Assembly (NCBI GenBank): GCA_963705275.1
Contig: OY970063.1
Coordinates: forward strand, 476,438 to 540,437
DNA length: 64,000 nt
Direction: 5' to 3'
Source: an uncultured delta proteobacterium
GTDB lineage: Bacteria > Desulfobacterota > Syntrophia > Syntrophales > UBA2185
Each line of letters begins with the position of its first letter. Position 1 is the first letter of the stretch. This document shows, piece after piece, positions 1 through 53,585 of the stretch. The translations under genes and the position numbers were made by a program. The notes under the pieces are model-generated. The model was not told where the DNA came from and ran no database searches. It saw only the letters and a program-made list of their open reading frames with translations.

Positions 1-257
1 CACAGGCAACGCGGGCTCTTGAAGAAGCCGGAGCCGTGGAGGTGTCCGTATGCTGCACCCACCCCGTACTTTCAGGACCTGCTATAGACAGAATTGAAAA
101 TTCAGGCCTCAAGGAGATCATCGTCACTGACACCATCCCCCTGCATGATAGGGCCAAGGCTTGTAAACGCATCAAGGTTCTTTCTGTCGCCGGGCTAATC
201 AGTGAAGCTGTTCGGCGCATCTATTACAACGATTCAGTACATTCGCTTTTTATATAG
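1..257 (+). CDS. prs: ribose-phosphate pyrophosphokinase, C-terminal part (5' end lies outside the window)
   Basis: The open frame runs from the window edge to the TAG at 255-257. The translation ...CCTHPVLSGPAIDRIENSGLKEIIVTDTIPL...KVLSVAGLISEAVRRIYYNDSV matches the conserved PRPP synthetase C-terminus. It has the usual prs-rplY-pth context. Confidence 0.85.
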   Translation, partial: QATRALEEAGAVEVSVCCTHPVLSGPAIDRIENSGLKEIIVTDTIPLHDRAKACKRIKVLSVAGLISEAVRRIYYNDSVHSLFI

Positions 258-266
258 GAGGAGTAG

Positions 267-899
267 ATGGAAATAAGTGAATTAAAAGCCAGTCTTCGCA
301 CGACTTCTGGAAAAGGGATTTCCCGAAGACTGAGGAAAAACGGGTTAACGCCGGCCGTATTTTACGGCCCCAAAGCTCAAGCTGTTCTGTTGACGGTGAA
401 TTCTTCTGACTTGATGAAGATACTAAAGGGCAAGGAGGAAAACATTTTCATAAACCTGCTGATAGCAAACGGCAGCACAATGGAAAAATTCACCCTCATT
501 AAGGAACTGCAGATAGATCCTCTCAGCGGAAAATTCCTGCACGTAGACTTCTGCGAAATTGACATGGAACACGCCATTACCGTTGACGTACCCATCCATT
601 TCAAAGGACAGGCCATAGGTATAGATAACGGGGGAGATCTACATCATATTAGAAGGGAAATAAAGGTCTCCTGCCTATTTACAGTGCTGCCTGAATTTGT
701 AGAGGTGGATGTAAGCGGTCTCGACATCGGCGATTCGATAAAGGTGCAAGACATAAAATTGCCTGAGGGTGTCAATGTCCTTGATCCTAACGATATGATC
801 ATAGCATCAGTTTCGGCACCGAGGGCTGTGGTGACAGCTGAGCCGGTTGTAGAGGAACAGGAAGCAGTAGAAACACCGGAAGAGGAAGAAGGATCCTAA
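267..899 (+). CDS. rplY: 50S ribosomal protein L25 / general stress protein Ctc
   Basis: AGGAGG lies 5 nt upstream of the ATG. The N-terminus ...RTTSGKGISRRLRKNGLTPAVFYG is the L25/Ctc signature. It has an acidic C-terminal tail and sits between prs and pth. Confidence 0.9.
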   Translation: MEISELKASLRTTSGKGISRRLRKNGLTPAVFYGPKAQAVLLTVNSSDLMKILKGKEENIFINLLIANGSTMEKFTLIKELQIDPLSGKFLHVDFCEIDMEHAITVDVPIHFKGQAIGIDNGGDLHHIRREIKVSCLFTVLPEFVEVDVSGLDIGDSIKVQDIKLPEGVNVLDPNDMIIASVSAPRAVVTAEPVVEEQEAVETPEEEEGS

Positions 900-1035
900 G
901 CAGTGAAGATCCCCGGCTGCGATGGGGACTTTGCAGGCAAAGACATTACTGTTGTTTCGCCCCGCTGATGGAGCGGCGTTTGCGGGATGCATTCCCGGTC
1001 AAGTGTAAGACTTCTACTCCACTAGAGGTGACTGT

Positions 1036-1638
1036 TTGAAGCTTATAATTGGGCTGGGAAATCCAGGTATCAAGTACCAGGCCACTAGGCATAATAGTGG
1101 CTTCTTGGCGATTGATGAAATCGCTGCCAACCATAATATCCCCGTAAATTTGAAAGGCTTTGAGGCTTTTTTTGGAAAAGGCAGAATCGGTGACATTCCG
1201 ATCCTGCTTTTCAAGCCTATGACCTTTATGAATATCAGCGGCTCTGCAGTCAAGAAGATCGTAGACTACTTCAATGTCGATCCAGCGGATATAATCGTCA
1301 TTCACGATGACATAGATATCCCTTTCAGGACAATCCGTTTGAAGGCTGGCGGAGGTCATGCCGGTCATAAAGGACTAATTTCCATCATAGACAGCCTCGT
1401 CAATCCAGATTTTATCAGGGTGAGAATTGGCATCGGAAAACCTTTTGATAGATCGATGGTTGAGAGATATGTTCTTGAACAGTTTGCCGAGGATGAAATG
1501 AAGTTGTTGCCCGAGATCATGAAAACCGCAAGTGATGCAGTGACAATGGTTGCTACGTCAGGGATTCAGGCAGCCATGAATCAGTACAATGAGAGACCCG
1601 CTAATCAATCGGACAACGAGGACGCTGTCTTGCATTGA
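1036..1638 (+). CDS. pth: peptidyl-tRNA hydrolase
   Basis: TTG start preceded by GAGGTG. MKLIIGLGNPGIKYQATRHNSGF is the canonical Pth N-terminus. The length is about 200 aa. Confidence 0.93.
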   Translation: MKLIIGLGNPGIKYQATRHNSGFLAIDEIAANHNIPVNLKGFEAFFGKGRIGDIPILLFKPMTFMNISGSAVKKIVDYFNVDPADIIVIHDDIDIPFRTIRLKAGGGHAGHKGLISIIDSLVNPDFIRVRIGIGKPFDRSMVERYVLEQFAEDEMKLLPEIMKTASDAVTMVATSGIQAAMNQYNERPANQSDNEDAVLH

Positions 1639-1713
1639 TCCTTCACGATACGATAAACTGCGATTACGGAATAAAACTCATACAAGAACAGTGGTCTAAT
1701 AAAGGAGAACAAT

Positions 1714-2808
1714 GTGGGTTTTAAGTGCGGCATTATCGGGCTTCCGAATGTTGGGAAGTCCACCATCTTCAACGCCTTGACCGCGGCGGGTGCCGAGGTC
1801 GCAAATTATCCCTTTTGTACCATTGATCCCAACGTAGGGATTGTGCAAGTCCCGGATGAGCGGCTGCACAAAATTGCTGATATCGTCAGACCTCCCAAAG
1901 TTATTCCTACCACCATTGAATTCCTTGACATCGCCGGCCTCGTCAAAGGCGCAAGCAAAGGTGAAGGTCTCGGAAACAAGTTTTTGGGACATATAAGAGA
2001 AGTCGATGCCCTTGCACACATTGTGCGATGCTTCGATCATCCCTCTGTCGCACATATCTATGGCGCTGTTGATCCTGAACGTGACGTAGATATAATCAAT
2101 ACGGAATTAATCATCGCCGATTTAGAGACGTTGGAGAACAGGATCGCAAAGATCGGAAGGCTCGCAAAGACTGGCGACAAGACAGTCCATAAAGAGTTAG
2201 ATACGTGTCATCGTATCAAGAATGTTCTGGCCACGGGAACCACTGCACGCGAAATGACTTTTCAGGAAGATGAGCGGATAACCGCGAGAGATCTTCACCT
2301 GCTCACAACAAAAGAAGTCCTGTATGTTTCTAATGTCAGCGAGGCCGCTCTCAAGGGAGTTACAGACTGCACAGAGAAAGTGGAATCGATCGCAAGAAAG
2401 GAAAACTCAAACGCAATCACTATCTGCGGGGATATGGAAGCGGAGATAGCAGAGCTTCCAAAGGACGAACAGCAAGCGTTTCTCAATGCTCTGGGCATTC
2501 AGGAATCGGGTCTTAGTAAGCTCATTCGTGAAGCATACAAACTCTTGGGTTTAATAACATTTTATACGACGGTCGGACCGGAGCTCCGGGCGTGGACGGT
2601 GCCGCAGGGATCAAAAGCGCCAGAAGCTGCCGGCAAGATACATAGTGATATGGAGAAGGGGTTTATAAAAGCAGATATTATACATTACAGCGATTTTATC
2701 AGAATGGGCAGCCTGTCTTCAGCAAAGGTGGCAGGGTCCATCAGAATCGAAGGACGTGATTACATAATAGCCGATGGCGATATTGCTTACTTCAGATTTA
2801 ATGTTTGA
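1714..2808 (+). CDS. ychF: redox-regulated ATPase YchF (Obg-family GTPase/ATPase)
   Basis: GTG start after AAAGGAG. P-loop GLPNVGKST is present, followed by the TGS-like C-terminus ...EGRDYIIADGDIAYFRFNV. The length is 364 aa and pth-ychF synteny is conserved. Confidence 0.95.
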   Translation: MGFKCGIIGLPNVGKSTIFNALTAAGAEVANYPFCTIDPNVGIVQVPDERLHKIADIVRPPKVIPTTIEFLDIAGLVKGASKGEGLGNKFLGHIREVDALAHIVRCFDHPSVAHIYGAVDPERDVDIINTELIIADLETLENRIAKIGRLAKTGDKTVHKELDTCHRIKNVLATGTTAREMTFQEDERITARDLHLLTTKEVLYVSNVSEAALKGVTDCTEKVESIARKENSNAITICGDMEAEIAELPKDEQQAFLNALGIQESGLSKLIREAYKLLGLITFYTTVGPELRAWTVPQGSKAPEAAGKIHSDMEKGFIKADIIHYSDFIRMGSLSSAKVAGSIRIEGRDYIIADGDIAYFRFNV

Positions 2809-3002
2809 AAGGAAGCAATGGCGTCTAAAAAAGGTCAACTATAGGAGCAAGGCAAACTGAAAGGGCGGATGAAGGTAAAATATCCGCTGGCGAATACCTG
2901 ACCTTTCATCACTCACATCTGCGGGGGATCGGCGGATGGCAAAGGAGGGAAGGGAAACCATCCACCGACTCAGAGTAAGAGAATTTTACGATACAAGCAG
3001 AG

Positions 3003-3239
3003 CTAATCTTCATCGGAAAAGAAATCAGGAAGGAAAAATGTTTTGCTTTGGTCTCTATCTTCTTCTCTCTTTACCGGCTCACTCGGGCCGAGCCCATCTG
3101 ATATATTCTCTTTAAACTTACTGTCTTCGTTGATGAAGAACTCATATTCTATGCCAAATTCACCAAGATCAGATCCCGAGCGCGAGACCTCGTCTTCCCG
3201 ATTTCTATCCTTTTCTTTGCGTTCTCCCTCCTTCTTCAT
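3003..3239 (-). CDS. hypothetical small hyper-charged protein (78 aa), putative sigma-54-dependent target
   Basis: This is the only ORF of 60 aa or more on the minus strand between ychF and the activator gene. It is about 130 nt downstream of a -24/-12 promoter. It has no clear SD and no homology I recognise, and it could instead be part of a non-coding transcript. Confidence 0.35.
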   Translation of the reverse strand: MKKEGERKEKDRNREDEVSRSGSDLGEFGIEYEFFINEDSKFKENISDGLGPSEPVKREEDRDQSKTFFLPDFFSDED

Positions 3240-3350
3240 CTAATATATATTAAGGATAATTGAATTTCATGAGACCTCTGAGATCTACCTTTCATCTTTG
3301 CTCTATCGGCTATTATTCCTAAAGGTCTCTTACGTTCTCGAGAGGTCTCT
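3185..3350. repeat. four copies of the 8-mer GAGACCTC / GAGGTCTC (two in each orientation, one of them 7/8)
   Basis: On the plus strand, gagacctc occurs at 3185-3192 and 3271-3278. gaggtctc occurs at 3342-3349 and aaggtctc at 3322-3329. Sites 3271-3279 and 3341-3349 form a perfect 9-bp inverted repeat. Confidence 0.7.
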
Positions 3351-3369
3351 TCGAGTTGAATTTAATATG

Positions 3370-3385
3370 TGCAATATCATTGCCA
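3370..3385 (-). promoter_or_regulatory. sigma-54 (-24/-12) promoter
   Basis: The minus strand reads TGGCAATGATATTGCA. GG and GC fall at exactly the canonical spacing of TGGCAC-N5-TTGCW. It points toward ORF 3239-3003 and lies directly downstream of a sigma-54 activator gene. Confidence 0.65.
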
Positions 3386-3556
3386 CTTTGATGCTGCCTT
3401 CATTCTGCAAATAAATTAAGTAGGAAAATTTCGAAAAATGAAAATATACTCTTCACAAATCAACGAGTTGTAAACCACCATCAGAAGCTTCCTCTTTTTG
3501 AGACAGCATGCTCTTTTAAAAAAATGACGTAAATGATGAATATCTTCCGGGATTAT

Positions 3557-3663
3557 TTGTGCGGCAATAGCACAATAGATTTGGCCCACAATGAGGTATT
3601 TTAAAGAAATCCGTCACTTCACCAAGTGTGCATAATGAGCACATATCGTGCCCTTATAGCACT
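3557..3663. promoter_or_regulatory. three candidate enhancer (UAS) sites, TGTGC-N7-GCACA inverted repeats
   Basis: The sites are TTGTGC-GGCAATA-GCACAA (3557-3575), TGTGC-ATAATGA-GCACA (3627-3643) and cGTGC-CCTTATA-GCACt (3647-3663). The last two have centres 20 bp apart. All lie 170-280 bp upstream of the -24/-12 element. Confidence 0.55.
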
Positions 3664-3672
3664 AATTCGTGA

Positions 3673-5808
3673 TCAATTGATGTGCTTATCAATCTTCTTT
3701 CGTTCTCTGATGAATTTGTAACGAGAAATGCTTAGATGCTTGGCCGCTGCAGTCTTGTTGCCGCCGCTTATTTCCAGAGCATTTTCGAGGATTCTTTCTT
3801 TAATGTCGCTCATAATTCTCTCTGTCACCACAGTGTAATCTATTTCCCCGGAGGAGAGTGCGGGAAGAAATTTTTCAATTTCAACTTTGAGATATTTGTA
3901 GCTCGGAACGGCCTTTATTTCGGCGGGAAGATCGTCAGGCGAAATGGATGTGCCAAGTTTCTGCAAGATCATGACCCTCTCAATTATATTTTTCAACTCC
4001 CTTACATTCCCTGGCCACGTATAAGCTTTCAAAATAAGTTCTGCTTCTTTACTGAACCCTCTTACCTTTTTCCCGAACTTCCTGTTAAATTCTTCTATAT
4101 AGTGCCTTGCCAGAAGAAGTATATCATCAGGTCTTTCACGGAGGGGCGGGATGACAATAGGAACAACCCTTATTCTGTAAAAAAGATCTTCGCGAAATGA
4201 CCCTTCACTTACCATCTTGGCAAGGTCCATATTTGTTGAAAAAATAAACCTTACGTCAACGGGTATATTTTCTGTTCCGCCGAGACGCCTCACATAACCG
4301 TTTTCCAGCATTCGCAAGAATTTTACCTGCAGCTGGATGCTCATATTTCCAACCTCATCCAGCAGCAATGTGCCTCCATTGGCATATTCCAGAAGACCAA
4401 TCTTCCTTTTTCGCGCATCCGTAAATGCTCCCGCTTCATATCCAAAAAGTTCACTTTCCAGCAATGTCCCCGGAATTGCAGCACAATTAACATCTACGAA
4501 GGGTTTGGAAGATCTGTTGCTCTGTCTGTGAATGGCGCGGGCAATTAATTCCTTGCCGGTACCACTTTCGCCCTGAATCAATATATTTGTATTATGTGAT
4601 GCGACTTCCTCAATTACATGGAAAATGCCGATCATCTTCTTTGATTTGCCGAGAATATTATGAAACCCCAAAAGGATATCTTCTCTCTCTTTTAATTTTT
4701 CGACTTCCGTCTTGAGGGATTCCGCTTCAAGCGACAGCATCGAATGCATAATTACATTGTCATATGAGGTAACAGCATTCTTAACGAGTATGTCCAGAAT
4801 ATTGATTTGATCCTGCGTATAGCTGCCTGATCGTTTTGCAAGATACAGCGCGCCTTTGAACTTGTCCTTTATATGAAGGGGAAATGCTAGTTCAGAATGG
4901 AACCCATCATAGACAGGGTGGGTCAACGAACCCTCGTCAGTTTCTCGTCGCACGACAATAGCATCAGTATCCATTACCTGACCTATGATGCTCTTGCCTA
5001 TTATCCCATCATAAGCCTTTCTGTCCTCAATAAACACCTTCCCACCATCAGTGACAAGACACCGATCCTTTTCGATGTCTAAGAAATATACGAGGACTCT
5101 ATCGGCGCCCGCAATTTCAAGCGCACTCTTATTGAGGATGTCGATTATCCGATTATCAAGGACGCGACTTGAATTTATCTCGGACACAGCCTCCTGAAGA
5201 ATCATCAACTGACGGATTTTCTCCGCATTCGTCGCAAAGAGCCTTGTATTGTGGATGACAATGCTCATCTGACTGGCAAATGTCAGAAAGAGGCTGATCT
5301 CTTCAGTGAAGAATTTCGTTTCCTCCTTGCACCACGCCGCGATTGTTCCTATGACGTCATCGCCTATCTTGAGGGGCACACACACGATAGAGCCCTTGCT
5401 AAGAATCTTTGTCAACATGCGATCAGTTTCCGTGATTCTCGGATCAGTTGCCGCGTCCGCGATGGCAATCACCTGGCCTGATTTTGCTACCTTTGTTGAT
5501 AGACAATCATGTTCGTAAATATTGAGGGCAACTGAGAATGCCCTTGCTGTCTCTTCGGGATTGTAATTCTTCACAACCTTGGTTTCCAGATACTGCTTCG
5601 TCTCATCAAAAAGTCTGATTATCCCCATGTCGAAACCCATGGTATCGACAACTTCATCCAGAATTCTGGCTAGTATTTCATCCACGTTGGAGGGAGCGGT
5701 AAGAAAGGTGCTTATCCTAAAAATACTTTGCAGCAACTTATCTTTGTCAAGCAAAGGAGTGCCGGATATTTCGATATGGAGATCCTCATCGCCATTTATT
5801 CTCGCCAT
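3673..5808 (-). CDS. sigma-54-dependent transcriptional activator (bEBP) with tandem N-terminal GAF-type sensor domains
   Basis: 711 aa. The AAA+ core carries Walker A GESGTGKE, the GAFTGA-type loop EAGAFTDA and ...RERPDDI. The C-terminal Fis-type HTH reads GGNKTAAAKHLSISRYKF. The ~380 aa N-terminal region looks like GAF. Confidence 0.9.
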   Translation of the reverse strand: MARINGDEDLHIEISGTPLLDKDKLLQSIFRISTFLTAPSNVDEILARILDEVVDTMGFDMGIIRLFDETKQYLETKVVKNYNPEETARAFSVALNIYEHDCLSTKVAKSGQVIAIADAATDPRITETDRMLTKILSKGSIVCVPLKIGDDVIGTIAAWCKEETKFFTEEISLFLTFASQMSIVIHNTRLFATNAEKIRQLMILQEAVSEINSSRVLDNRIIDILNKSALEIAGADRVLVYFLDIEKDRCLVTDGGKVFIEDRKAYDGIIGKSIIGQVMDTDAIVVRRETDEGSLTHPVYDGFHSELAFPLHIKDKFKGALYLAKRSGSYTQDQINILDILVKNAVTSYDNVIMHSMLSLEAESLKTEVEKLKEREDILLGFHNILGKSKKMIGIFHVIEEVASHNTNILIQGESGTGKELIARAIHRQSNRSSKPFVDVNCAAIPGTLLESELFGYEAGAFTDARKRKIGLLEYANGGTLLLDEVGNMSIQLQVKFLRMLENGYVRRLGGTENIPVDVRFIFSTNMDLAKMVSEGSFREDLFYRIRVVPIVIPPLRERPDDILLLARHYIEEFNRKFGKKVRGFSKEAELILKAYTWPGNVRELKNIIERVMILQKLGTSISPDDLPAEIKAVPSYKYLKVEIEKFLPALSSGEIDYTVVTERIMSDIKERILENALEISGGNKTAAAKHLSISRYKFIRERKKIDKHIN

Positions 5809-5835
5809 TGTTAAATCATTCCCTTTCCAAAATAA

Positions 5836-6348
5836 TTATGCCTCACGCAACATGATGCTGAGGGCTGTAGTAAGCTTCATGGTGTCCTCATCCGCTCTCC
5901 TCAATCTCGCACTCACAATCCTCCCTAGGTTCAACAGCATCCGGTAACCAAGTTCATAATCTTTTTCAGCAACCTTCAAAAAATCATCCTTCTTCATTTC
6001 GTACATAACGCAATCAGTGACTGCCTTTACGGAAGCGGTTCTTTTTTGTTCCTCAAGGAGGGCTATTTCCCCGACGACGGCGTGCTGTCCGCCATCCAAT
6101 CTCGTGAATACCTTATTTTTCCCTGAGTCTTCATTATCTGTGTCGTCTATAACAAGGTTCTTTGCGATCTCGACGGTGCCCTCCAAGATAATATACATGG
6201 TATCTCCGATATCGCCCTCTCTCATGATGATCTCATCGGCCGAAAAGGTAACTTTACGCAGGATATCCGTAATTCTTTGGATCTTTTCCGCAGTCAGGTT
6301 TCTAAAAAGAGCGATATCCCTCAATGCAGCAATGTCTTTATTCATCAA
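5836..6348 (-). CDS. stand-alone cyclic-nucleotide-binding (CAP/CNB) domain protein
   Basis: 170 aa. The phosphate-binding-cassette-like motif VGEIALLEEQKRTASVKA is present. The stop is 27 nt upstream of the bEBP start, which suggests an operon. Confidence 0.8.
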   Translation of the reverse strand: MMNKDIAALRDIALFRNLTAEKIQRITDILRKVTFSADEIIMREGDIGDTMYIILEGTVEIAKNLVIDDTDNEDSGKNKVFTRLDGGQHAVVGEIALLEEQKRTASVKAVTDCVMYEMKKDDFLKVAEKDYELGYRMLLNLGRIVSARLRRADEDTMKLTTALSIMLREA

Positions 6349-6448
6349 TTATCCCCCCAAAGTATAACCTCCGCATGTCTTGCAGTATCAGCCACCTTCC
6401 AAACAATGTCAGAACCTCTTATACGAGACGCATAAAGACTCTTGCTCG

Positions 6449-7624
6449 TCACCTAATCTTGCCGGCATTACCCTTCGAAAGTATCACGGCAAATTGCCCG
6501 TCTTTTATGACGTATCCGTCGTCAGGATTTAAGATAAACTGCATCTCTTCCCTCTTATAAAAGAAATCTTTTTTTGATTCCTTTATTTTATCCTTGATAA
6601 AGGTATCAATGACGGATGTATCGTCCGATAAAATATCTGCCAATTTCATTGCCTTCTTTTCCGTTAGGAGACCTATCAGGATAGCGTGCCTCTTTTCCCT
6701 GAAAAATACCGAGAGCTCTTTAAATGTATTACCTACAAGACTACGGGGAATTTCTGCTCTCCACAATTTGTTGGTGTCCCCCAGCGACAAGATGCTCGAA
6801 AATATCTTAGGGAGACCAGGGGAATTAATCGCACTTGCCAGGAGTGACCCCACATGTTCGCCCCTGACGACGACTTCATCAACATTTGCCCTTTTCAAGT
6901 GCTGCTTGTTTTCACCATCCAGGAGCTCGACAATCGTTTTAACATTGGGGGCTAAAGATTTTATAGCTAGAGCGGCAAGGGTTGTTCTTTCATCAATCCG
7001 CTCGTGCGGATGGCTTCCTGACGAGTCTGCCATTATCAGGGCAAAGGCAGCCTTGGTAATATTAGCTCTCGAAAGAACATCTTCGTGGACGTAATTGCCC
7101 CTGAGAAATCTAAGGTTGTATTTGTCATACTTGAGCTTGAGGGAATCGACATCGTCAACAGAAAGTTCGTTTATCAGGATGATAGGTGTATCTTCCATAG
7201 AACCATATGTCTTCAGCACCTGGAGGACTTCTTCTGTATGCTGATTCCAACCGCATATAACAATGTGGTTTTTCTCCTTGACAGTTTCCAAACCTTTTCC
7301 CTCCTTAATCTTCCGTTCGACAAATATGGAGGCGATAGTTGCCGTGAAGAGAGACATTAACCCCACGCCTGCAAAGATGAGCACTAAACCAACTGCTCTT
7401 CCACCCGCTGTTATCGGATATATGTCACCATAACCGACAGTACCCATAGTTACCACTGCCCACCAAACACCATCCCACAAAGAATGAATGGTAGATTCCT
7501 CCCCGGCACGTTCAAAATAATAGACGCTGGTTGCACTGATGAAGATAACACTTATGATGACGGTGGCAATTTGAACAAACTTCTCCCTGTACAATCTTTT
7601 CATTGATTTTAAGGCCATCGACAT
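6449..7624 (-). CDS. K+ channel with RCK/TrkA domains (MthK-like)
   Basis: Two TM helices flank a pore loop with the selectivity filter TVGYGD. A Rossmann-like RCK-N (IVICGWNQHTEEV...) and a TrkA-C-like end follow. Confidence 0.85.
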   Translation of the reverse strand: MSMALKSMKRLYREKFVQIATVIISVIFISATSVYYFERAGEESTIHSLWDGVWWAVVTMGTVGYGDIYPITAGGRAVGLVLIFAGVGLMSLFTATIASIFVERKIKEGKGLETVKEKNHIVICGWNQHTEEVLQVLKTYGSMEDTPIILINELSVDDVDSLKLKYDKYNLRFLRGNYVHEDVLSRANITKAAFALIMADSSGSHPHERIDERTTLAALAIKSLAPNVKTIVELLDGENKQHLKRANVDEVVVRGEHVGSLLASAINSPGLPKIFSSILSLGDTNKLWRAEIPRSLVGNTFKELSVFFREKRHAILIGLLTEKKAMKLADILSDDTSVIDTFIKDKIKESKKDFFYKREEMQFILNPDDGYVIKDGQFAVILSKGNAGKIR

Positions 7625-7708
7625 ATGCTGTCCCTATAATTAGGCTGCACTTAGGCAGCGTAACTTGCCCTTGGTCTGGGATATGCAATGATTACCGACA
7701 TGAATAAA

Positions 7709-9742
7709 TCAACGCGTGCCGTATTCAAAAAATCGCATGGAGAAAGTGGCCCTGCCTTGAGTCGCAGACCGCAGGTCTGTTGAATATCCAAACATTTCCT
7801 TCAGAGGTATTTTGCCCCTGATCTCACTTATAGTTCCCTTCGGCGTGATCGCTTGAATTTCCCCTCCTCTGGCATTTATGTCTCCTATAACCTCGCCCAT
7901 GAATTCCGCCGGCACGATGACATCTACCATCATGATCGGCTCAAGCAGTATAGGATCAGCCTGCAAACAACCATTTCTGACTGCAGATGATGCGGCAATC
8001 TTATAACCAAGCGTCGTAGATTCCCCTTCCCTGAAAGATCCTCCAGTTATCGTCACCTTGATATCCACAATGGGGTAACCACTGATTACACCGCTGAGTG
8101 TCGCTTCTTCAATGCCCTCGTGGATGGCAGGATAAAACTCTTCCGGTATTACGATTTCGCCTGTCTGTATAGCAATCTTATTTCCTTCTCCCCTGCTTCT
8201 GGGTTCAAGCAATAACCGAACATGACCAAAATGCTTTCTTTCGCCAAGTTCTTTTTCAAAGAGGCCTTCAGCCTCTATTTTCCTTTGAATAGTCTCCCGA
8301 TAGACGACCCTGGGCTTACCAACATTTACATGGGCGCCGAAATCTCTCTTTAACCTATCAGTGACAATTTCCAGATGAAGTTCTCCCATGCCTGAAATTA
8401 CGGTTTGAGCTGTCTCGTCATTATACTTCACTTCAATCGTAGGATCTTCTTCCATCAGCTTGCCCAGCGCGATGCTCAGTTTTTCCTGATCCGCCGGCGT
8501 CTTGGCCTCTATAGCCTGACTTATTACGGGTTTATAGAACTCAATAGGTTCGAGAAGAATCGGACGGGACTCATCGCAGATCGTATTTCCAGTCGTTGTA
8601 TCTTTGAGACCCAGAACAGCAACGATATCTCCGGCACCGCACCTGTTGATTCTTTCTCGCTTATTGGCATGCATCTTCAACAGCCGCGCAATCTTTTCTT
8701 TTCTTCCGATGCTGGCATTATACACTGCATCGCCCACTTTTAAACTGCCCGAATAAACTCTAAGATAGGTTAACTTCCTTCCTTCATCCTGTCTGATCTT
8801 GAATGCCAGGGCAGCGAGGGGCTCATCGTCGCTGCTGAGCCTCACTTCTTCCTTTTTCGTTACAGGATTGGAACCCTTGACCGGAGGGATGTCCTCCGGT
8901 GAGGGAAGAAAGTGAACTATAGAATCAAGTATGGGTTGAATGCCTCTATTTCTCAGGGCGGAACCGCACATAATAGGTACCGCCTTTAAAGAGATGGTTG
9001 CCTGTCTAATGGCTCTGATTATCTCTTTTTCCGAAATAACTGTTCCATCCAAATATTTCTCTGCAATATAGTCATCCATCTCGGCTAGTGATTCAATCAG
9101 TTTCTCACGAGACTCTTTGGCTTGCGGAAAATTGTCAGATGGAATATCTGACAATGAAAAAGATGACCCAAGCGTACTGTCGTCCCAGATAATTGCCTTC
9201 AGTCTGATCAGGTCTATGATGCCTCTAAAATTATCTTCCTCGCCCAGCGGTATCTGTATTGGTAGCGGTACTGAGTTAAACCTTTCGCCCATAGTCTTTA
9301 TTGTACCAAAATAATCGGCACCGACTCTGTCCATCTTATTGATAAAAGCTATTTTAGGTACACCATATTTATCGGCCTGATGCCAGACTGTTTCCGACTG
9401 CGGTTCGACGCCGCCAACTGCGCAAAAGACAACTAGTGCTCCGTCCAAAACTCTTAGGCAGCGTTCAACCTCCATCGTAAAATCTACGTGCCCGGGTGTA
9501 TCAATTATCTGGATGTCATGATTTTCCCAGGTACAGGCCGTAACCGCTGAGGTAATCGTTATGCCTCTCTCCTGCTCCTGGGGCATCCAGTCCATTGCAG
9601 CTTCGCCGTCATGGACCTCCCCCATCTTGTATAGTATTCCTGTATAGAAGAGTATTCTTTCGGTGACGGTGGTCTTACCGGCATCTATGTGGGCAACTAC
9701 ACCGATATTGCGTGTTCTTGAAAGCTTCTTTCTTGAGGCCAT
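7709..9742 (-). CDS. fusA: elongation factor G family GTPase (paralog outside the str operon)
   Basis: 677 aa. G motifs [17 protein letters not shown] and NKMD are present. Domains III-V are recognisable, ending ...[13 protein letters not shown]. Confidence 0.9.
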
Positions 9743-9777
9743 AGACTAACCTGAGCTGGGAACTCTTTGTGCGGGCA

Positions 9778-10401
9778 TCATCCTTCTTTTGCACCCGGCG
9801 CCAGCATGTCTTTATTCGTAGTGAAGGGCTGTCTCGTATCAACATGCCCTTTAATGGAATCCACTTCCTTCCCGTCTATCAGTAACTTCACCCTTTTAAT
9901 GCTGTTGATATTGCGCATAAGACTATTGGTCAGCGAATATATTGTCGCCATTTCGCTGGCACTGCCGCCCGGATGTTGCTTGATAAGATTCTTGTCAAAG
10001 CTGACATAGGCCGTGTGCTTTTCATCTATCCTGATATTGCCTAGAGCTACTCCCTCCGGGAAAGTGCTTACAAGCTTCGTCTTAGAGCCTTCAAGCAATG
10101 CCTTTACCAGTTCCCTGGCCTTGGCTTGATCATTTTCCTCCTTGGGAATGTATCTCTTTTCCGGAACTAAAAATCGTTCATTCGCATCTGAAAAATACAG
10201 AACGACCTCCTGTTTTTCCTTCTTTGCGACGCCGTCCTTGGTTGGCGGGAACACATATTCAAAAATGATTACAAAGAAAAGTATGAGACATGCTACAATG
10301 GTAGCAACAATCATAAAAAGGAAAGACTTTTTCATACGCTTCCTTTTCTTCTTTCCCTTTATCTCATCCGTTCTCCTCTTTCTCTTTGTGGCCATAGTCA
10401 A
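9778..10401 (-). CDS. GerMN domain-containing membrane-anchored protein
   Basis: A basic N-terminus plus one TM helix precedes ...VVLYFSDANERFLVPEKRYIP... and ...LLIDGKEVDSIKGHVD, typical of GerMN. The stop is 35 nt upstream of the EF-G start. Confidence 0.7.
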   Translation of the reverse strand: MTMATKRKRRTDEIKGKKKRKRMKKSFLFMIVATIVACLILFFVIIFEYVFPPTKDGVAKKEKQEVVLYFSDANERFLVPEKRYIPKEENDQAKARELVKALLEGSKTKLVSTFPEGVALGNIRIDEKHTAYVSFDKNLIKQHPGGSASEMATIYSLTNSLMRNINSIKRVKLLIDGKEVDSIKGHVDTRQPFTTNKDMLAPGAKEG

Positions 10402-10872
10402 TCGTTCTCCTCAGTTACTAAAAGCGGCGATAATGTAGGGTATTTTCACAATACTGTCAAGCAGATAACAGAGCCAACTCATCATTTGAACAGCAAAGAG
10501 AGGTTTAAGAAATGTAAACCTGAGTTCTATGATGTTTCCATTCTTTGTTCGAACCCAGACGGCTAAGAAACATTGCGTTTCCTAAGGCCTTGCCCACGGA
10601 ACAAACCTGTTCATCGATTAACGTCCTACTTACGCCGCAGAAATATTGAATCGGTAAGCATTCAGGAGGTGTAACACATGTTGCAATCTCATGATCTTTC
10701 CAGCATGGTCAGATGAGAATTGCGCGGTATGACATGATTCCACGTTGTCATCAGCCTTCAGTTAGCTCTCGGCTGGAAGCCCCATGCTGATTTCAACTAT
10801 GTTGTGGAAGGATTTGATCGCCCGTGTTTGCGCGGCGCTGCTTTATGAAGTGATTGATGAGAGACTTCATTT

Positions 10873-11457
10873 CTATTTATTATCACTGCTGCAACCATTC
10901 ACCCACCAATCGCTCTTATCTTTGAACCACCACTCGGAAGAATCCGTTTTGATAATGCTAAGGGCCAGCTTTCTTGCAGTATCGGTATGAAGTCGTCTTC
11001 TTGCAAATTCAATCCACTCGCCCGTGTACTTATTACCTAGATCACCGTATTCCTTCAACTGAAGAATCAAAGCAAGCTGGTCGGCATCGTGGGCAATAAG
11101 AGACTCCCTTGTCTTCTTCTCATTAAATTCGTCAATGACGGACTTTATTTCATCGCCGAAGAATACTGTCTGAGTCAGCTCTCTTATGGCTCTTTCTTCG
11201 TGCACAGTAACATACTTCTTATACATGTAGTTCATATCGCCGGTTCTTGCTTCGGGAAGATCATGGACAAGACATATCTTTAACACCTTCAATTCGTCCA
11301 GACCAGGTTCAAGTTTACTTAAAGCATAGCCAATAAATATCGTTCGCAGAATATGTTCAGCCACCGATTCGCAGCCGGAGCCCAGGAATCTAAAGCCTGT
11401 TCTGGGGGTTTTTTTTAACATGCCCACTTCAAATAAGAAATTCGCTATGCTGTCCAT
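10873..11457 (-). CDS. HD-domain phosphohydrolase (YfbR/COG1896-like 5'-nucleotidase family)
   Basis: Metal-ligand pattern ...ESVAEH..., ...LVHDLPEARTGD..., ...AHDADQL... The length is 194 aa. Confidence 0.8.
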   Translation of the reverse strand: MDSIANFLFEVGMLKKTPRTGFRFLGSGCESVAEHILRTIFIGYALSKLEPGLDELKVLKICLVHDLPEARTGDMNYMYKKYVTVHEERAIRELTQTVFFGDEIKSVIDEFNEKKTRESLIAHDADQLALILQLKEYGDLGNKYTGEWIEFARRRLHTDTARKLALSIIKTDSSEWWFKDKSDWWVNGCSSDNK

Positions 11458-11458
11458 A

Positions 11459-11677
11459 TTATTCCTTCTTCATCATCTTTATTCTGTTGTCCATCATATC
11501 GGATACTCTCTTTATCTGTGACTGAAGCGATGCAATACCGTCTGGTTTCATGGACAGTAATCTATCAATCTGCGATTTCCAGTACTCCAATACAGATATT
11601 TCGTTTTCTTTCAGTTTTCTATCAAACCTTGCCTGGAGCTCTTTGATAAATGCCGGATTATTCTCTAAATCAGCCAT
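11459..11677 (-). CDS. hypothetical 72-aa coiled-coil protein
   Basis: ATG start. The TAA stop is separated by 1 nt from the HD gene ATG. The composition is helical and charged. No family recognised. Confidence 0.45.
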   Translation of the reverse strand: MADLENNPAFIKELQARFDRKLKENEISVLEYWKSQIDRLLSMKPDGIASLQSQIKRVSDMMDNRIKMMKKE

Positions 11678-11946
11678 TTGCTATCCCCGTTTAGTGAATA
11701 TGGTCATTACATGACAGATATAATTTATTATATCATTAATGCTTGTTCTTGCAACTATTGATATTGAAAAAAGCCGAATTCTAATGTCCTTGAAGTTTGT
11801 AATCTTAATATTGAATGAACGTAATGATATTGAGATTTCACTTTGCACAATAGCTTAATTATGTTAATAACGCCCATACTTACCGAATCTTGCAAGCGCC
11901 GCCTTAATACTGTCAAGGTCGTTCAATATTTTAACGAGGTATATTT

Positions 11947-13605
11947 ATGGGTAATCTTCGCCCGAGATTATTCTATCTCATTCTTCTTTCTTCAGTCTTT
12001 GTCGCCATCACATCTATATATTCTTCTGCGGAGGAGGATACGGCCCATCTTTCATTTCAAAAAACAGCGACGCTACGTGCAAAGACACGTCCTTACGTAA
12101 TTAAGGAAGGGGAGTGGCTCTTAAGGATCATGAGAGCCGAAGCGGGAATAACATCACGCCGACTTAGCATACTAAAAAAACTGAATCCTGAAATAAAAGA
12201 TCTAAACAAGATTAGACCGGGCCAGGTTGTCATACTCCCGGAAATGGAACGCCCCGCTACGCCCGAAGGGGAGGACAGCTCCCCGACATTAAATTACTCG
12301 ATAAGAAAAGGCGATTCCATAAGCCGTATTGCCGTGCGTGAACTAAAGGTGAGATTCCCTGAGCTTAGAAAAGCTGTGGACGACATCAAACGGCTGAACC
12401 CGGATATCAAGAACTACGACATGATATATCCCGGACAAACCTTGCAACTGCCACGGAAAGGCATAGTCATTACTAAACAGGAAGCTCGGGCTTCGGAAGC
12501 AGAATCATCGCTTAAAGTCGTTAAGGATGATGCGAAAGACAAACCTGTCGTTCTGCCACAGGCTCATCTTGACGTTATAAGGGTCGTCATCAACAGAATG
12601 AATGGCTCCCTCATAACGCTGGGCAAATATTATATTCCCATTCCGCAGTTAGGAGAGGTGACTATTGACTGTTCCACAATACCTGTTGTTGAGATGGATG
12701 ATGGAAGTTCGATTTTCTTGGATTTTTCCAGCAGTATGCCGGATACCTTGAAGAATATGATCCAGTCCAACTGGAAAAACTATCGCTCCGTTGAGGCAGG
12801 CAATAGTGACGATACTGGTGAAATCATCCAGAAGATCGTCAATGCCTCAAATATATATACAATGACGAGAAGGACTACCCCATACGCAATAGGAAATAGT
12901 CCGACACTCCTGCTCTCCCTCGACTGGATAATAACAAAGAAAGCTCAGGATACCAAGCCATACCTGCAGGGACTGTCATTTGTTTCAGATGATTCCCGAC
13001 TATTGCCCAAACCCATGATCGAATATGCCGAAAGAAACGGCATGATGATTACAGAAATACTGGATGGACAGGGTATATTGAGCACATCAGATGAAAAGTA
13101 TGCCTCACCACGAATGTCAAAATTGAACGTCAGCACTAATATTGAACTGGCCAATTCCCTGCTTAACGAATTCGGATATCAGACAACCCGAGATGCTGGA
13201 GTCGCGATACTTGACGCCTCCACAAGCGGTTTTGATCTCTCCATAAAAACCGACCTCCTCGCAAAAATGGGGGATAGGCAAATAATAATCCTCTCAAAAA
13301 AAATCCCCCAACAGTTCATTGACAGTTTGAAAACCCGGGGCACGGAGACGGTAACTCTCGAGCGCGAAGATACGAAGAAGACGGTTATCGAGAAAGTCCT
13401 CATGGCTGCTAGTATTACCTTCTCCTTTGCCAGTTACTCATTCTCAGTCCCTGATAACACAGCTAAGCCGGCAGGCACCATCAGCTTCCCCGCCTTTAAG
13501 ATAACACGAGACAAAGGAGACTTTTATCTGATCGATTTCGATATGGATCACACCATATATGGACTGCTCAACAATAAATGGAAGGTGAATATCGTCACAT
13601 ATTGA
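11947..13605 (+). CDS. exported protein with two LysM repeats and a large uncharacterised C-terminal domain
   Basis: The N-terminus is signal-like (LFYLILLSSVFVAITSIYSSA). The LysM-like repeats are YVIKEGEWLLRI...IRPGQVVILP and YSIRKGDSISRI...IYPGQTLQLP. The ~350 aa C-terminus is unassigned. Confidence 0.8.
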   Translation: MGNLRPRLFYLILLSSVFVAITSIYSSAEEDTAHLSFQKTATLRAKTRPYVIKEGEWLLRIMRAEAGITSRRLSILKKLNPEIKDLNKIRPGQVVILPEMERPATPEGEDSSPTLNYSIRKGDSISRIAVRELKVRFPELRKAVDDIKRLNPDIKNYDMIYPGQTLQLPRKGIVITKQEARASEAESSLKVVKDDAKDKPVVLPQAHLDVIRVVINRMNGSLITLGKYYIPIPQLGEVTIDCSTIPVVEMDDGSSIFLDFSSSMPDTLKNMIQSNWKNYRSVEAGNSDDTGEIIQKIVNASNIYTMTRRTTPYAIGNSPTLLLSLDWIITKKAQDTKPYLQGLSFVSDDSRLLPKPMIEYAERNGMMITEILDGQGILSTSDEKYASPRMSKLNVSTNIELANSLLNEFGYQTTRDAGVAILDASTSGFDLSIKTDLLAKMGDRQIIILSKKIPQQFIDSLKTRGTETVTLEREDTKKTVIEKVLMAASITFSFASYSFSVPDNTAKPAGTISFPAFKITRDKGDFYLIDFDMDHTIYGLLNNKWKVNIVTY

Positions 13606-16389: not shown

Positions 16390-17091
16390 TCATTCCTTTA
16401 TATAATACTGTACCTTTAATCCACCTGCTTCGACAATGTCACCATCTTTCAGATCGTATTTGTGATCAACCTTCTGGCCGTTTACTTTCAACGTTCTTCC
16501 TCCCGCAGGCGTGATAAAATATCCTTCCCTTCTTCTATTGACAAGGGCGGCCACCTTGGGGGCAAAAAAGCCTCTAAGATGAATACCGGCTCCGTCTTCC
16601 TTGCCGATAGTCGTCACTCTCTCTTTTAGAAGATAATCCCTTTTTCCCGTCGATCCTTCAATAACTATGAAACCTCCAAGGATCTCTGGCTTTTCCTTGT
16701 CCTGAGGGGCCAGTATTCTCTTCTGATCTTCCGCGGCAATTACGACGGTTTCGTCCATCGAATGCCCCTGTACGGCAAAACCCTTGGTTTCCGTTTCCCT
16801 TGCCTTTTCCACGATGACATCAAGTGTATGAACGCCTATTAAGACCACGTCTCCGTTATGCAATTCGCCTTTAGAAATTTTCTGGCCATTAATAAAGGTA
16901 CCGTTCAGGCTATTCGCATCCTCAATGAAGAGAGAACGTCCCTCCTTCTTGATGCGCGCGTGATACCCGGATACGGCTTGGTTATCGATAACAATATCAT
17001 TGTCCTTTTTTCTCCCGATAGTTATGACGTCCTGATCAAGCGGTATCTCCCTTATTATGGCTTCTTTAAATTTGAGCAAAATCTTCGCCAC
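16390..17091 (-). CDS. protein with two FHA domains
   Basis: The N-terminal FHA reads ITIGRKKDNDIVIDNQAVSGYHARI...NSLNGTFINGQKI. A second, more divergent FHA-like domain (TTIGKEDGAGIHL...LKVNGQKV) follows. The start lies 3 nt after the CHASE2 gene stop. Confidence 0.85.
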   Translation of the reverse strand: MAKILLKFKEAIIREIPLDQDVITIGRKKDNDIVIDNQAVSGYHARIKKEGRSLFIEDANSLNGTFINGQKISKGELHNGDVVLIGVHTLDVIVEKARETETKGFAVQGHSMDETVVIAAEDQKRILAPQDKEKPEILGGFIVIEGSTGKRDYLLKERVTTIGKEDGAGIHLRGFFAPKVAALVNRRREGYFITPAGGRTLKVNGQKVDHKYDLKDGDIVEAGGLKVQYYIKE

Positions 17092-43389: not shown

Positions 43390-44721
43390 ATGAATGAAGA
43401 ACCGACACTCAGAGTGGGCATCCTGCAGGGCTACAGTGAAGTACTAGGAAGGCTAAACGGCCCATTTCTTATCAATGATGCCCTCAGTCTAAGCGGGACG
43501 TTCAGGGCCTATGAACGAGAAGGCCGCATCCTCCTTGCCGATGCTGCGGGACATGAGATAATCCATGAGAAAGAAGTTCGGTGCACCCCCGTCGATGATT
43601 CAACCTTCACCCTCCTCGATGTGATGATCGGTGTGAATTTCCACTGGCAGAGAAAACAGGAACAAACTTTCCGCGGAGAACTGAGGCTCATCCTAGACGA
43701 AAGCGACAAGCTCGTTGCCGTCAATAGAATTCCTTTGGAAGATTATTTATCAAGTGTCGTTTCCTCAGAAATGAATGCTGAAGCGGGGTTGGAATTCCTC
43801 AAGGCCCATGCAATTGCGTCACGTAGCTGGCTTGTGTCCATGCTCGGAATGGCAGGCAAGGCAGTGCACGGAGGAAATGCATCGGCCGGTCCAGACCGGC
43901 AAACTAAAGAGCACATCAGGTATTACCAGAGGGTTGACCACACGCTTTTTGACGTCTGTGCGGACGATCATTGCCAGCGGTATCAGGGCATCAGCCGGCC
44001 AATGTCTGATAACGCCCGGCAGGCAGTTGAGAGAACACGCGGCCTGTTTCTCGTCTACAACAATGAGATCTGCGATGCCCGTTATCATAAAGCCTGCGGC
44101 GGTCTGACGGACAATTTCGCAAATACTTGGGATGGTGTCACCGTCCCATATCTCACGTCCGTCCCGGACTCTGCTGTCCCGTATGATCCGATCCGCACGG
44201 AGGCCGAAGCCAGGAAATGGATTCTGGGAGATCCGGGGGCATATTGCAATACTGAAGACCCCAATGTCCTGCGCAGGATTCTCCCCTCCTTCGATCATGA
44301 AACGGCGGATTTTTTCCGCTGGAAGGTGGCGTATACACGCACAGAACTGGAGGATATCGTCCGGGAAAAATCGGGGGTGGATTTCGGCAATCTCCTCTCT
44401 CTCACTCCGGTTGAACGCGGCCCCTCCGGCCGCATAGTGAGGCTGCAAATCGCAGGATCGAAAAGAACTCTGACCATAGGCAAGGAGCTCGAGATCCGTC
44501 GCTGGCTCTCACGCAGTCATCTTTACAGCAGCGCATTTGTCGTTTGTGCGGAGAATGATAAGTCCGGCCTTCCAGTCCGCTTTATCCTGCATGGCGCCGG
44601 ATGGGGACACGGCGTAGGCTTATGCCAGATAGGGGCAGCCGTAATGGCCATAAAAGGCTTTACGTCAGAATCTATTTTGAAACACTACTATAGTGGTGCG
44701 GAGCTTCAGAAGCTTTACTGA
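43390..44721 (+). CDS. SpoIID/LytB-domain protein lacking any N-terminal signal or anchor
   Basis: ...EDYLSSVVSSEMNAEAGLEFLKAHAIASRSW... and ...GHGVGLCQIGA... are SpoIID/LytB hallmarks. The N-terminus MNEEPTLRVGILQG is hydrophilic. Confidence 0.8.
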   Translation: MNEEPTLRVGILQGYSEVLGRLNGPFLINDALSLSGTFRAYEREGRILLADAAGHEIIHEKEVRCTPVDDSTFTLLDVMIGVNFHWQRKQEQTFRGELRLILDESDKLVAVNRIPLEDYLSSVVSSEMNAEAGLEFLKAHAIASRSWLVSMLGMAGKAVHGGNASAGPDRQTKEHIRYYQRVDHTLFDVCADDHCQRYQGISRPMSDNARQAVERTRGLFLVYNNEICDARYHKACGGLTDNFANTWDGVTVPYLTSVPDSAVPYDPIRTEAEARKWILGDPGAYCNTEDPNVLRRILPSFDHETADFFRWKVAYTRTELEDIVREKSGVDFGNLLSLTPVERGPSGRIVRLQIAGSKRTLTIGKELEIRRWLSRSHLYSSAFVVCAENDKSGLPVRFILHGAGWGHGVGLCQIGAAVMAIKGFTSESILKHYYSGAELQKLY

Positions 44722-52103: not shown

Positions 52104-53585
52104 ATGAACAAATTGACCGTCGCTCTGCCGTTCAGCTTGCACTCCGGTTTTGAAAAGACGCTCCGACTCTTCCTTCAATCACAGCTGATTGACGAAGTGT
52201 TTATACTCCATGAGGGCGCCTTCAAGCCGCCATGGCCGAAGTGCAAAGTTATAAGAGCATCATCCCTTTCCTCCGGCAGGGTATTGAACAACCTCATAAA
52301 AAGAGTCAGAACGGATTTTCTCATGATGATCGTGGAACCCGAGGAAATGGAGATTCCGCCCGGCACGCTCGACCGTCTTATTGAAGTGGCGGAAAAAACG
52401 GATTCTGGCATGATCTATTCCGACTACCTGGTAAAGGAACAGGGCGACCTTGTTGAACATCCCGTCAATGACTATCAACTGGGAAGCATCCGTGACGAAT
52501 TTGATTTCGGATACTTGATCATGTTCTCTGTATCTGCAATCAGACGTGCATTAAGAAAATACGGCCCCGTACCTGACGTCGTTCATGCAGGATTGTATGA
52601 CCTGCGCTTGAAGGTTTCTGTCGACCAAAGTCTTTTCCATATTCAGGAATTCCTCTACACGAAGAAAGGATCAGACACCGACGCGGACAAAGACAGATCG
52701 AAGCGTGAAAACCATTTTAATTATGTCGATCCGCGTAACCAGGCCGTGCAAAAAGAATTGGAAATGGTTGCAACAGAGCATTTAAAAAATATCGGCGCCT
52801 TCTTGGAACCGCGCTTTAAAAATATGCCTCAACCTCGCTATGATTTCCCCGTTGAGGCAAGTATCATAATTCCCGTCCGCAACCGGGTGGGGACAATTAC
52901 AGATGCGGTGCATAGTGCTTTGACGCAGGAGACTAACTTTCCGTGCAACGTAATTGTTGTGGACAATCATTCCACTGATGGAACCACGCCCCTCCTTACT
53001 GAACTTGCCGGGAGTAATCCTGCTGTGAAGCATGTCATTCCGTCGCGATCTGATCTAACTATCGGCGGTTGCTGGAACGAAGCAATCTTCTCAGAATTCT
53101 GCGGCCGCTATGCCGTACAATTGGACTCGGACGATGTTTATAAGAGCCCCGCGACATTGCAGATGATCATCGACGTTATGAGAAGCGGAGACTTTGCCAT
53201 GGTCATCGGTTCTTATACACTCGTCAATGAAGCGCTGCAGGAGATTCCGCCCGGCATAATCAACCATAAGGAATGGACGGATGACAACGGACGCAACAAT
53301 GCACTGCGCGTAAACGGACTGGGCGCGCCGCGCGCCTTTGATACTGCTCTTCTTCGCAGCTTCCGCTTTCTCAATGTGGGTTACGGAGAAGACTATGCTA
53401 TGGCCCTCCGATTATCGAGAGAATATCGAGTAGGCAGAATTTATGAGAGCCTCTATCTATGCCGGCGGTGGGCAGGCAATACGGACGCTCGCATCTCCAT
53501 TGAGAAGAGTAACCGCCATGATGCGTTTAAAGACAAAATTCGAACTATCGAAATCATGGCTCGTCAGAAGCTGACGGCGAAATGA
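52104..53585 (+). CDS. family 2 glycosyltransferase with an extra N-terminal GT-A-like domain
   Basis: 493 aa. The C-terminal half has IIIPVRNR...NVIVVDNHSTDGT and the DxD-type QLDSDD. The N-terminal ~240 aa is unassigned. GGGGG/SD-like sequence lies upstream. Confidence 0.85.
   Translation: MNKLTVALPFSLHSGFEKTLRLFLQSQLIDEVFILHEGAFKPPWPKCKVIRASSLSSGRVLNNLIKRVRTDFLMMIVEPEEMEIPPGTLDRLIEVAEKTDSGMIYSDYLVKEQGDLVEHPVNDYQLGSIRDEFDFGYLIMFSVSAIRRALRKYGPVPDVVHAGLYDLRLKVSVDQSLFHIQEFLYTKKGSDTDADKDRSKRENHFNYVDPRNQAVQKELEMVATEHLKNIGAFLEPRFKNMPQPRYDFPVEASIIIPVRNRVGTITDAVHSALTQETNFPCNVIVVDNHSTDGTTPLLTELAGSNPAVKHVIPSRSDLTIGGCWNEAIFSEFCGRYAVQLDSDDVYKSPATLQMIIDVMRSGDFAMVIGSYTLVNEALQEIPPGIINHKEWTDDNGRNNALRVNGLGAPRAFDTALLRSFRFLNVGYGEDYAMALRLSREYRVGRIYESLYLCRRWAGNTDARISIEKSNRHDAFKDKIRTIEIMARQKLTAK

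Follow-up and report, generated by a model that had tools for sequence, protein, structure and literature searches.

The intergenic region downstream of a GAF-GAF bEBP gene in the 64,000-nucleotide stretch of DNA that we analyzed (the window) carries a conserved cassette in which a sigma-54 promoter with cognate enhancer sites likely drives a transcript made up of a small ORF and a small RNA (sRNA). We infer from sequence comparison that this transcript is about 530 nt long, running on the minus strand from about position 3358 to about 2827 toward ychF, and that it consists of three conserved modules, a 5′ hairpin, a 78-amino-acid ORF, and a 3′ sRNA. An earlier, sequence-only reading of the region had described the promoter and its enhancer sites and had left the regulated product of the promoter unidentified; the ORF-sRNA transcript is what the present analysis adds.

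The promoter, TGGCAATGATATTGCA, is present on the minus strand at 3385-3370, where it had been reported, with the −24 GG and the −12 GC at the canonical spacing and a predicted transcription start near 3358. It departs from the consensus TGGCAC-N5-TTGCW once, with C changed to A at position 6. TGGCA-N6-TTGCW was found once in the 64-kb window, and this lone match is not significant, since 0.37 are expected and at least one occurred in 32 of 100 shuffles. A single match of this kind in 64 kb is therefore not unexpected, and the motifs described here could be chance matches in AT-rich intergenic DNA, with no sigma-54 transcription at the locus. The positions of the enhancer sites and the conservation of the whole arrangement, described below, speak strongly against this view. 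A second promoter match, GGGCACGATATGTGCT, lies directly past the stop codon of the activator gene; we rejected it because it shows no conservation and overlaps two of the enhancer sites (UAS sites 1 and 2).

Three inverted repeats lie between the activator gene and the promoter. They had been placed 170-280 bp upstream of the promoter, and we measured 172-278 bp from the −24 element. The promoter-distal one, site 1 (3647-3663; CGTGC-CCTTATA-GCACT), is imperfect and does not have the full TGTGC-N7-GCACA form ascribed to all three, holding the GTGC-N7-GCAC core only; most orthologous loci have an equivalent site at the same 20-bp distance from site 2. The other two do have that form: site 2 (3627-3643; TGTGC-ATAATGA-GCACA), whose half-sites are fully conserved in a 17-sequence alignment, and site 3 (3558-3574), which reads TTGTGC-GGCAATA-GCACAA with its flanks at 3557-3575. 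Sites 1 and 2 form a pair with centers 20 bp apart (3655 and 3635), as the sequence-only reading had it, but the pair is promoter-distal, nearest the activator gene, and not proximal as it was called there. The center of site 3 is 69 bp from that of site 2, and the three centers fall at about −208 (site 3), −277 (site 2), and −297 (site 1) from the predicted start. The last repeat does end 10 nt after the stop of the activator ORF (3673-5808, minus strand). bEBPs bind paired inverted repeats 80-300 bp upstream of −24/−12 promoters and often regulate adjacent genes; the repeats found here are multiple, lie within this distance range, and are helix phased.

To compare the region across genomes, we searched a genome collection with the activator and obtained 76 loci, about 57 of them holding orthologues and the remainder holding unrelated sigma-54 activators. 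The orthologues, at 56-95% protein identity, belonged to Syntrophales or Syntrophaceae MAGs. A promoter was found in 51 loci. In most of them TGGCA-N6-TTGC[AT] stood 250-300 nt past the activator stop, and the UAS layout was likewise fixed in most, with two sites spaced by 20 bp and the third closer to the promoter by about 69 bp. The palindrome consensus over the orthologous loci was TGTGCG-N5-CGCACA. When 17 intergenic regions were aligned with MAFFT, the six GTGC/GCAC half-sites and the TGGCA and TTGC of the promoter were the sole fully conserved columns, the rest having drifted.

GTGC-N7-GCAC occurred three times in the 64-kb window, each time inside the same 105-bp stretch (0.58 expected; three or more in 2 of 100 shuffles), so that the three palindromes of the window all cluster at this locus. 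All elements keep their position in most genomes examined while their flanks drift. Because of these conservation data, we regard an origin of the motifs by chance as effectively refuted and give it next to no weight. The conservation of the promoter together with the three-site layout is, on comparative grounds, the decisive evidence and confirms that the observed arrangement is real.

The sequence AATCAACGAGTTG, on the plus strand at 3458-3470 between the UAS and the promoter, matches the IHF consensus (WATCAR-N4-TTR) and may be an IHF site. Its position is constant throughout the window's clade, and of 51 loci, 19 have a match to the consensus in the 150 bp that precede the promoter, compared with 2.6% of shuffled regions.

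The activator gene (3673-5808, minus strand) encodes a protein of 711 amino acids. The GAF-GAF-AAA+ architecture read from the letters was borne out by Pfam, which gave two GAF domains, Sigma54_activat (PF00158; E 7.7e-68), an AAA lid, and a C-terminal Fis-type HTH (HTH_8; 24.7 bits against a cutoff of 22). The Walker A motif is at residue 413. The sigma-54 contact loop is GAFTDA (residues 460-465), is conserved in the orthologues, and is one of the loop variants that a study of the Desulfovibrio vulgaris regulome (PMC4641369) lists as compatible with activation. No NCBIfam equivalog cutoff was reached by the activator, the best being NifA (TIGR01817) with 378 bits against 528.85, and we therefore assign it to an uncharacterized subfamily.

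That this protein controls the promoter had been proposed from adjacency, and the comparison favors the proposal in three ways: the cassette co-occurs with the orthologues, the domain set of a bEBP is complete, and the HTH is conserved alongside the sites. The recognition region of the HTH was conserved in 46 activator orthologues, in step with the UAS sites. The sites, the promoter, and the HTH being conserved together, the standard comparative-genomics argument assigns the UAS to the adjacent bEBP, and we consider this GAF-GAF protein the likely activator of the promoter.

Another bEBP, encoded elsewhere, might instead bind the UAS, with the neighboring gene being syntenic without a regulatory role or sharing the sites with a paralogue. 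Four GC-rich contigs (L089, L105, L146, and L193) have the UAS, the promoter, and the sRNA and no gene for a sigma-54 AAA+ protein in 10-12 kb, and two loci have the activator without the cassette, as this explanation would allow. Against these stand the 49 of 53 informative loci (those with enough downstream sequence) in which the cassette, with its anti-SD hairpin, lies beside the orthologous activator and on the same strand, and the 19 loci with non-orthologous sigma-54 activators (L058-L076), none of which has the hairpin. The conservation of the HTH runs parallel to that of the sites, and the activator is the sole bEBP encoded in the 64-kb window. Control by a different bEBP is thus quite improbable, and the adjacent protein remains our preferred activator.

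On the preferred reading, the bEBP would sense a small-molecule signal through its GAF domains and oligomerize on the three TGTGC-N7-GCACA sites, that is, on the pair two helical turns apart and on the remaining one, which is nearer the promoter by 69 bp. Bending of the DNA, probably aided by the IHF-like site at 3458-3470, would let it contact a sigma-54 holoenzyme sitting at TGGCA-N6-TTGCA (3385-3370), and ATP hydrolysis would then open the promoter. Within the 64-kb window we found no ORF with an RpoN box. Sigma-54 was assumed for the host genome from the taxon and from the presence of the bEBP, which implies it.

The promoter faces ychF (1714-2808, plus strand), which runs convergently, and the transcription unit can therefore be at most about 550 nt long. 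The first module of the predicted transcript is a leader hairpin (3271-3349, minus strand) with a basal stem, GAGACCUC/GAGGUCUC, and an inner stem, ACCUUU/AAAGGU. It folds at −23.6 kcal/mol with a z score of −1.66. Among 37 distinct homologues the basal stem was nearly invariant, with compensatory changes at two pairs; support for the structure is limited to this stem, the inner stems aligning poorly. In one locus (L019) the leader hairpin has a U-run terminator of its own, and in another (L017) nothing else follows the promoter.

The second module is the 78-amino-acid ORF (3003-3239, minus strand). Its product is highly charged, with an EYEFF motif in the middle and an invariant C-terminal FFL motif (TFFLPDFF). 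The ORF was found in 32 loci (alignment A2) with its frame conserved, and dN/dS was mostly 0.1-0.4 over pairs with dS up to about 3, which indicates purifying selection and hence a real protein. The exact 78-residue product has no database record, and its close homologues are annotated as hypothetical proteins. Searches of Pfam and NCBIfam with the ORF gave no match. A profile search of 5.8 billion proteins returned 72 matching clusters, none of which carried a functional name or a Pfam domain; their taxon labels, where given, were mostly of Syntrophales or Deltaproteobacteria MAGs. The ORF has no Shine-Dalgarno (SD) sequence: none of the 32 loci had an SD core upstream of it, compared with 12-19 of the 47 longer ORFs in the window.

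The third module is the sRNA. Its stem-loop 1 (SL1; 2928-2969, minus strand) has a 13-bp stem, 10 bp of which are conserved in the family, and the loop UUUCCCUUCCCUCCUUUG. Family members have a stem of 10-13 bp (CGGUGGRUGG/CCAYCCACCG) and a loop in which CCCUCC is invariably present; its typical form, UUCCCUCCUUU, is complementary to AAAGGAGGGAA. In the remainder of the sRNA (2827-2927, minus strand), a C-run (AUCCCCC) is followed by a second, variable hairpin and then by a U-run (2832-2827) that lies just short of the stop of convergent ychF (2808). The SL1 loop and the C-run that follows it resemble, by sequence, the 16S anti-Shine-Dalgarno (anti-SD) sequence. In the family alignment (A1, analyzed with RNAalifold), SL1 and the C-run are followed by a variable, covarying second hairpin and then by a terminator hairpin with a U-run, the terminator hairpin being a second copy of the CCCUCCUUU hairpin in many clades. 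This second anti-SD hairpin/terminator of other clades is degenerate in that of the window, leaving one anti-SD hairpin and no clean terminator, and the 3′ end of the sRNA is probably the U-run at 2832-2827.

Covariation supports this structure. The sRNA of the window folds with a z score of −3.5. Pairing in SL1 was kept in 99.8% of cells in 41 distinct sequences, compared with 26-62% in slid controls; compensatory changes were seen at 5 of its 10 pairs (33 cells), and none of 500 shuffles reached the observed covariation score. For the second hairpin (SL2), all nine predicted pairs were kept via a two-sided change in at least one sequence. Compensatory pairs thus exceed both the shuffled and the slid controls, as is characteristic of a structured sRNA.

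We built a covariance model of SL1 from the 41 distinct sequences. In the window it gave one true match (2919-2970, minus strand; 64 bits, E 7.6e-13). In the orthologous loci it gave 69 matches in 49 loci, all of them on the activator strand and downstream of the activator gene, and in the 19 loci with non-orthologous activators it gave none. A scan of window positions 1-12000 and six related loci against Rfam 15, at E up to 1, returned nothing relevant. Outside the window's clade, most loci have an RNA that ends in a hairpin and a U-run on the activator strand. The position of the U-runs, after the hairpins on this strand, identifies the C/U-rich reading as the one that is transcribed. We also considered the hairpin as an SD-containing element of the ychF strand and rejected this, since the U-runs and all model matches are on the activator strand and ychF is not always adjacent.

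The 3′ hairpins could also be terminators, attenuators, or stabilizers of the small-ORF mRNA, the small protein then being the sole regulated product. SL1 in the window does lie 34 nt past the ORF stop and lacks a separate promoter, and in many loci the last hairpin with its U-run serves as a terminator. A terminator, however, does not need a loop such as CCCUCC, which is invariant while the stem covaries. The hairpin also occurs without the ORF. It is right behind the promoter in the ORF-less loci L015, L024, L029-L032, L035, and L038 (in these and in L053 and L056, which also lack the ORF, the promoter and the sRNA are 50-90 nt apart), it occurs by itself in L086, and it is intact where the ORF is broken (L002 and L004). 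Hairpins that serve the mRNA are for these reasons unlikely to be the whole explanation, and we continue to favor an sRNA.

The cassette extends beyond the loci found with the activator. A hairpin-only scan of metagenome contigs found the RNA in at least 120 contigs, most of which, where enough upstream sequence was available, had the same promoter and UAS spacing; among the matches listed, contigs reaching far enough upstream also showed the orthologous activator. Several loci depart from the usual arrangement. In L001, whose activator is 95% identical, a clean deletion starts within UAS site 1 and reaches the 3′ part of the sRNA, and in L025 the activator is kept and the cassette is absent. 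The activator may have other targets, because both loci retain it without the cassette. Taken with the GC-rich contigs that have the cassette and no activator, they make the adjacency of activator and cassette usual and not obligatory. In L086, EF-G is followed by the sRNA and then by convergent ychF, with neither the activator nor a recognizable sigma-54 promoter. The ORF is broken in L002 by a change of ATG to ATT and in L004 by a premature stop, and the RNA is intact in both. The sRNA is, by this comparison, the most persistently conserved module of the cassette, since it is kept across these exceptional loci (those with the cassette and no activator, L086, and the two with a broken ORF).

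The anti-SD-like loop suggests how the sRNA might act. It would pair with the Shine-Dalgarno regions of target mRNAs and so reduce their translation; we hold this masking of SD sequences, which we infer from the sequence of the loop, to be a tenable idea that falls somewhat short of probable. Pairing of the SL1 loop with the translation initiation regions of the 57 ORFs in the window was unremarkable. The best hit was the cNMP-binding gene (−17 kcal/mol, about 2 standard deviations from the mean), which we judged uninformative. Pairing of the loop with the first codons of the ORF (AAGGAGG) was rejected as a general mechanism; it had z scores of −2.3 to −4.1 in the window's clade and was absent in distant clades.

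More speculatively, the locus might represent a widespread riboregulatory module of Syntrophales and related anaerobes, in which a GAF-GAF activator drives a tripartite transcript and a signal thereby switches translation between an SD-dependent and an SD-independent mode. A 3′ sRNA mimicking the 16S anti-SD would broadly dampen SD-dependent translation, and the co-transcribed ORF, SD-less in all 32 loci, would escape repression. Such a switch would operate in slow-growing syntrophs, at a locus that lies amid translation genes. We regard this extension as possible and rather doubtful.

The architecture of the locus is of a known kind, both as a sigma-54-dependent sRNA beside an activator gene and, as in CcsR, as a small ORF with anti-SD sRNAs. 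The qrr1 gene of Vibrio adjoins luxO, and there too a bEBP (LuxO) and sigma-54 drive small regulatory RNAs; LuxO, however, is a response regulator, the Qrr RNAs are Hfq dependent and have a different seed, and the RNA of the window had no Rfam match. NrsZ of Pseudomonas aeruginosa consists of repeated stem-loop modules. As cited in PMC9731577, Wenner 2014 describes NrsZ as an RpoN-dependent sRNA encoded just past the activator genes ntrBC. By that cited account, NrsZ shares with our locus a sigma-54-dependent sRNA directly after the activator gene and differs in its activator, its signal (nitrogen), and its RNA sequence. In D. vulgaris, the bEBP genes DVU0653 and DVU0679 are followed by noncoding RNAs (ncRNAs) (Rajeev 2011; Kazakov 2015, PMC4641369). 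This is the same deltaproteobacterial order of sigma-54 activator gene, UAS, −24/−12 promoter, and ncRNA product, but those activators are two-component response regulators, whereas that of the window is a one-component GAF-GAF protein, and no small ORF was reported there. The likeness is one of arrangement.

In Rhodobacter and other Alphaproteobacteria, the small ORF CcaF1 (71 amino acids) is co-transcribed with 3′ anti-SD-loop sRNAs, the CcsR or "cuckoo" RNAs (PMC8034643 and PMC4615179). Both systems join a small ORF (71 amino acids there and 78 in the window) to 3′ sRNAs with C/U-rich anti-Shine-Dalgarno loops, and many loci related to the window have two such hairpins per RNA, as CcsR does. 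The loop is CCCUCCUUU in our family and CCUCCUCCC in CcsR, however; the CcsR ORF belongs to the DUF1127 family, whereas ours has no Pfam domain; and the promoter there is RpoHI/HII dependent, whereas that of the Syntrophales locus is predicted to depend on sigma-54 and a bEBP. We found no match to any Rfam family at E up to 1, no CCUCCUCCC loop, and no DUF1127 neighbor, and the resemblance to CcsR is one of analogy, not homology. Differences in loop motif, protein, promoter type, and taxon place the locus outside both of these families, despite its resemblance to both the sRNA-beside-activator and the CcsR arrangements.

The family of sRNA and small protein itself appears to be undescribed. 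In the literature that we searched on Syntrophus, Deltaproteobacteria, or sigma-54-dependent sRNAs, neither the RNA of the window nor any Syntrophales sRNA was described. The RNA, in at least 120 metagenome contigs, and the small protein, in 72 clusters, are conserved families missing from Rfam and Pfam. For an uncharacterized bEBP subfamily, this supplies a candidate binding motif (three sites of TGTGCG-N5-CGCACA) together with a promoter and a regulated product, which is what placing it in a regulon needs. Syntrophales, which are mostly uncultured and genetically hard to manipulate, are key syntrophic degraders of fatty acids and aromatics in peat, sediments, and digesters. Should the anti-SD loop act as proposed, the locus would parallel the translational control exerted by CcsR, RsaE/RoxS, and AbcR, wired in this case to sigma-54 and a GAF sensor.

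Two observations bear on the setting of the locus and on the signal. The GAF region of the activator shows only weak similarity to GAFs that bind cyclic nucleotides (those of PDE5 and CyaB2) and to Nlh1 of Aquifex. Among the upstream genes, those for the K+ channel and for cNMP binding were considered as a clue to the signal and rejected, being an optional insertion that is missing from many orthologous loci. The core synteny runs from an EF-G paralogue through the activator and the cassette to convergent ychF and pth, and the locus is surrounded by translation genes, which encode the EF-G paralogue, YchF, Pth, and L25.

The small open reading frame (ORF) of the cassette lacked an upstream Shine-Dalgarno (SD) core at all 32 loci (0 of 32). 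In the clade of the window, codons 2 to 5 of this ORF read AAGGAGG(G) and are complementary to the loop of the sRNA, UUCCCUCCUU (window 3222-3239 against 2935-2955, both on the minus strand). The predicted duplex between these codons and the loop had an energy of −14 to −27 kcal/mol within this clade, with z scores of −2.3 to −4.1, and the complementarity was absent from codons 2 to 5 in distant clades. Pairing between the ORF start and the sRNA loop could provide feedback, either in cis or in trans. The exact complement of the loop core, AAGGAGGG, occurred at 10 sites in the 64 kb of the window, against 2.8 expected, and none of 100 shuffled sequences reached 10. These sites, among them 16940-16947, 44284-44291 and 52990-52997 (all on the minus strand), are presumably strong SD sequences.

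The 5′ leader hairpin lies at 3271-3349 on the minus strand, and its basal stem, GAGACCUC/GAGGUCUC, was nearly invariant among 37 distinct homologues. Within ~125 nt downstream of the sigma-54 promoter, the related locus L019 carried a leader hairpin with its own U-run terminator, and at a second locus, L017, the hairpin was the sole element remaining behind the promoter. Because of these two arrangements, the leader hairpin may be an independent small RNA, or else a processing or stability element.

Part or all of the cassette was missing from three loci that were found with the activator. The activator of L001 was 95% identical, yet the stretch of ~110 nt that follows its stop codon (from 6134) showed a clean deletion of ~690 bp, which extended from the interior of upstream activating sequence (UAS) site 1 to the 3′ part of the sRNA. 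L017 had kept the promoter and leader and had lost the ORF and the sRNA (from ~125 nt after the promoter), and in L025 the ~420 nt directly downstream of the activator gene contained no cassette. Given these gaps, the activator may have further targets, or the three loci may represent recent losses. The transcription unit also seems able to take up additional cargo. In L044 (6500-7600), a 175-aa ORF, which by eye looks like a universal-stress-type protein, was inserted between the promoter and a small FFLSD-motif ORF, with the sRNA hairpins following.

Four GC-rich metagenome contigs found through the sRNA hairpin alone (L089, L105, L146 and L193) carried the UAS, the sigma-54 promoter and the sRNA, with no sigma-54 activator gene within 10 to 12 kb. 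L086 (8298-12070) had the sRNA between the gene for EF-G and a convergent ychF, with neither an activator gene nor a recognizable sigma-54 promoter.

Translation-related genes surround the locus in the window (36-2808 and 5836-9742). On one side are an L25/Ctc-like ORF (267-899), pth (1036-1638) and ychF (1714-2808), and on the other is a gene for an EF-G paralogue (7709-9742). Two genes separate the latter from the activator gene, one (5836-6348) for a cNMP-binding protein and the other (6449-7624) for a K+ channel with an RCK domain. This pair is an optional insertion, missing in many orthologous loci.
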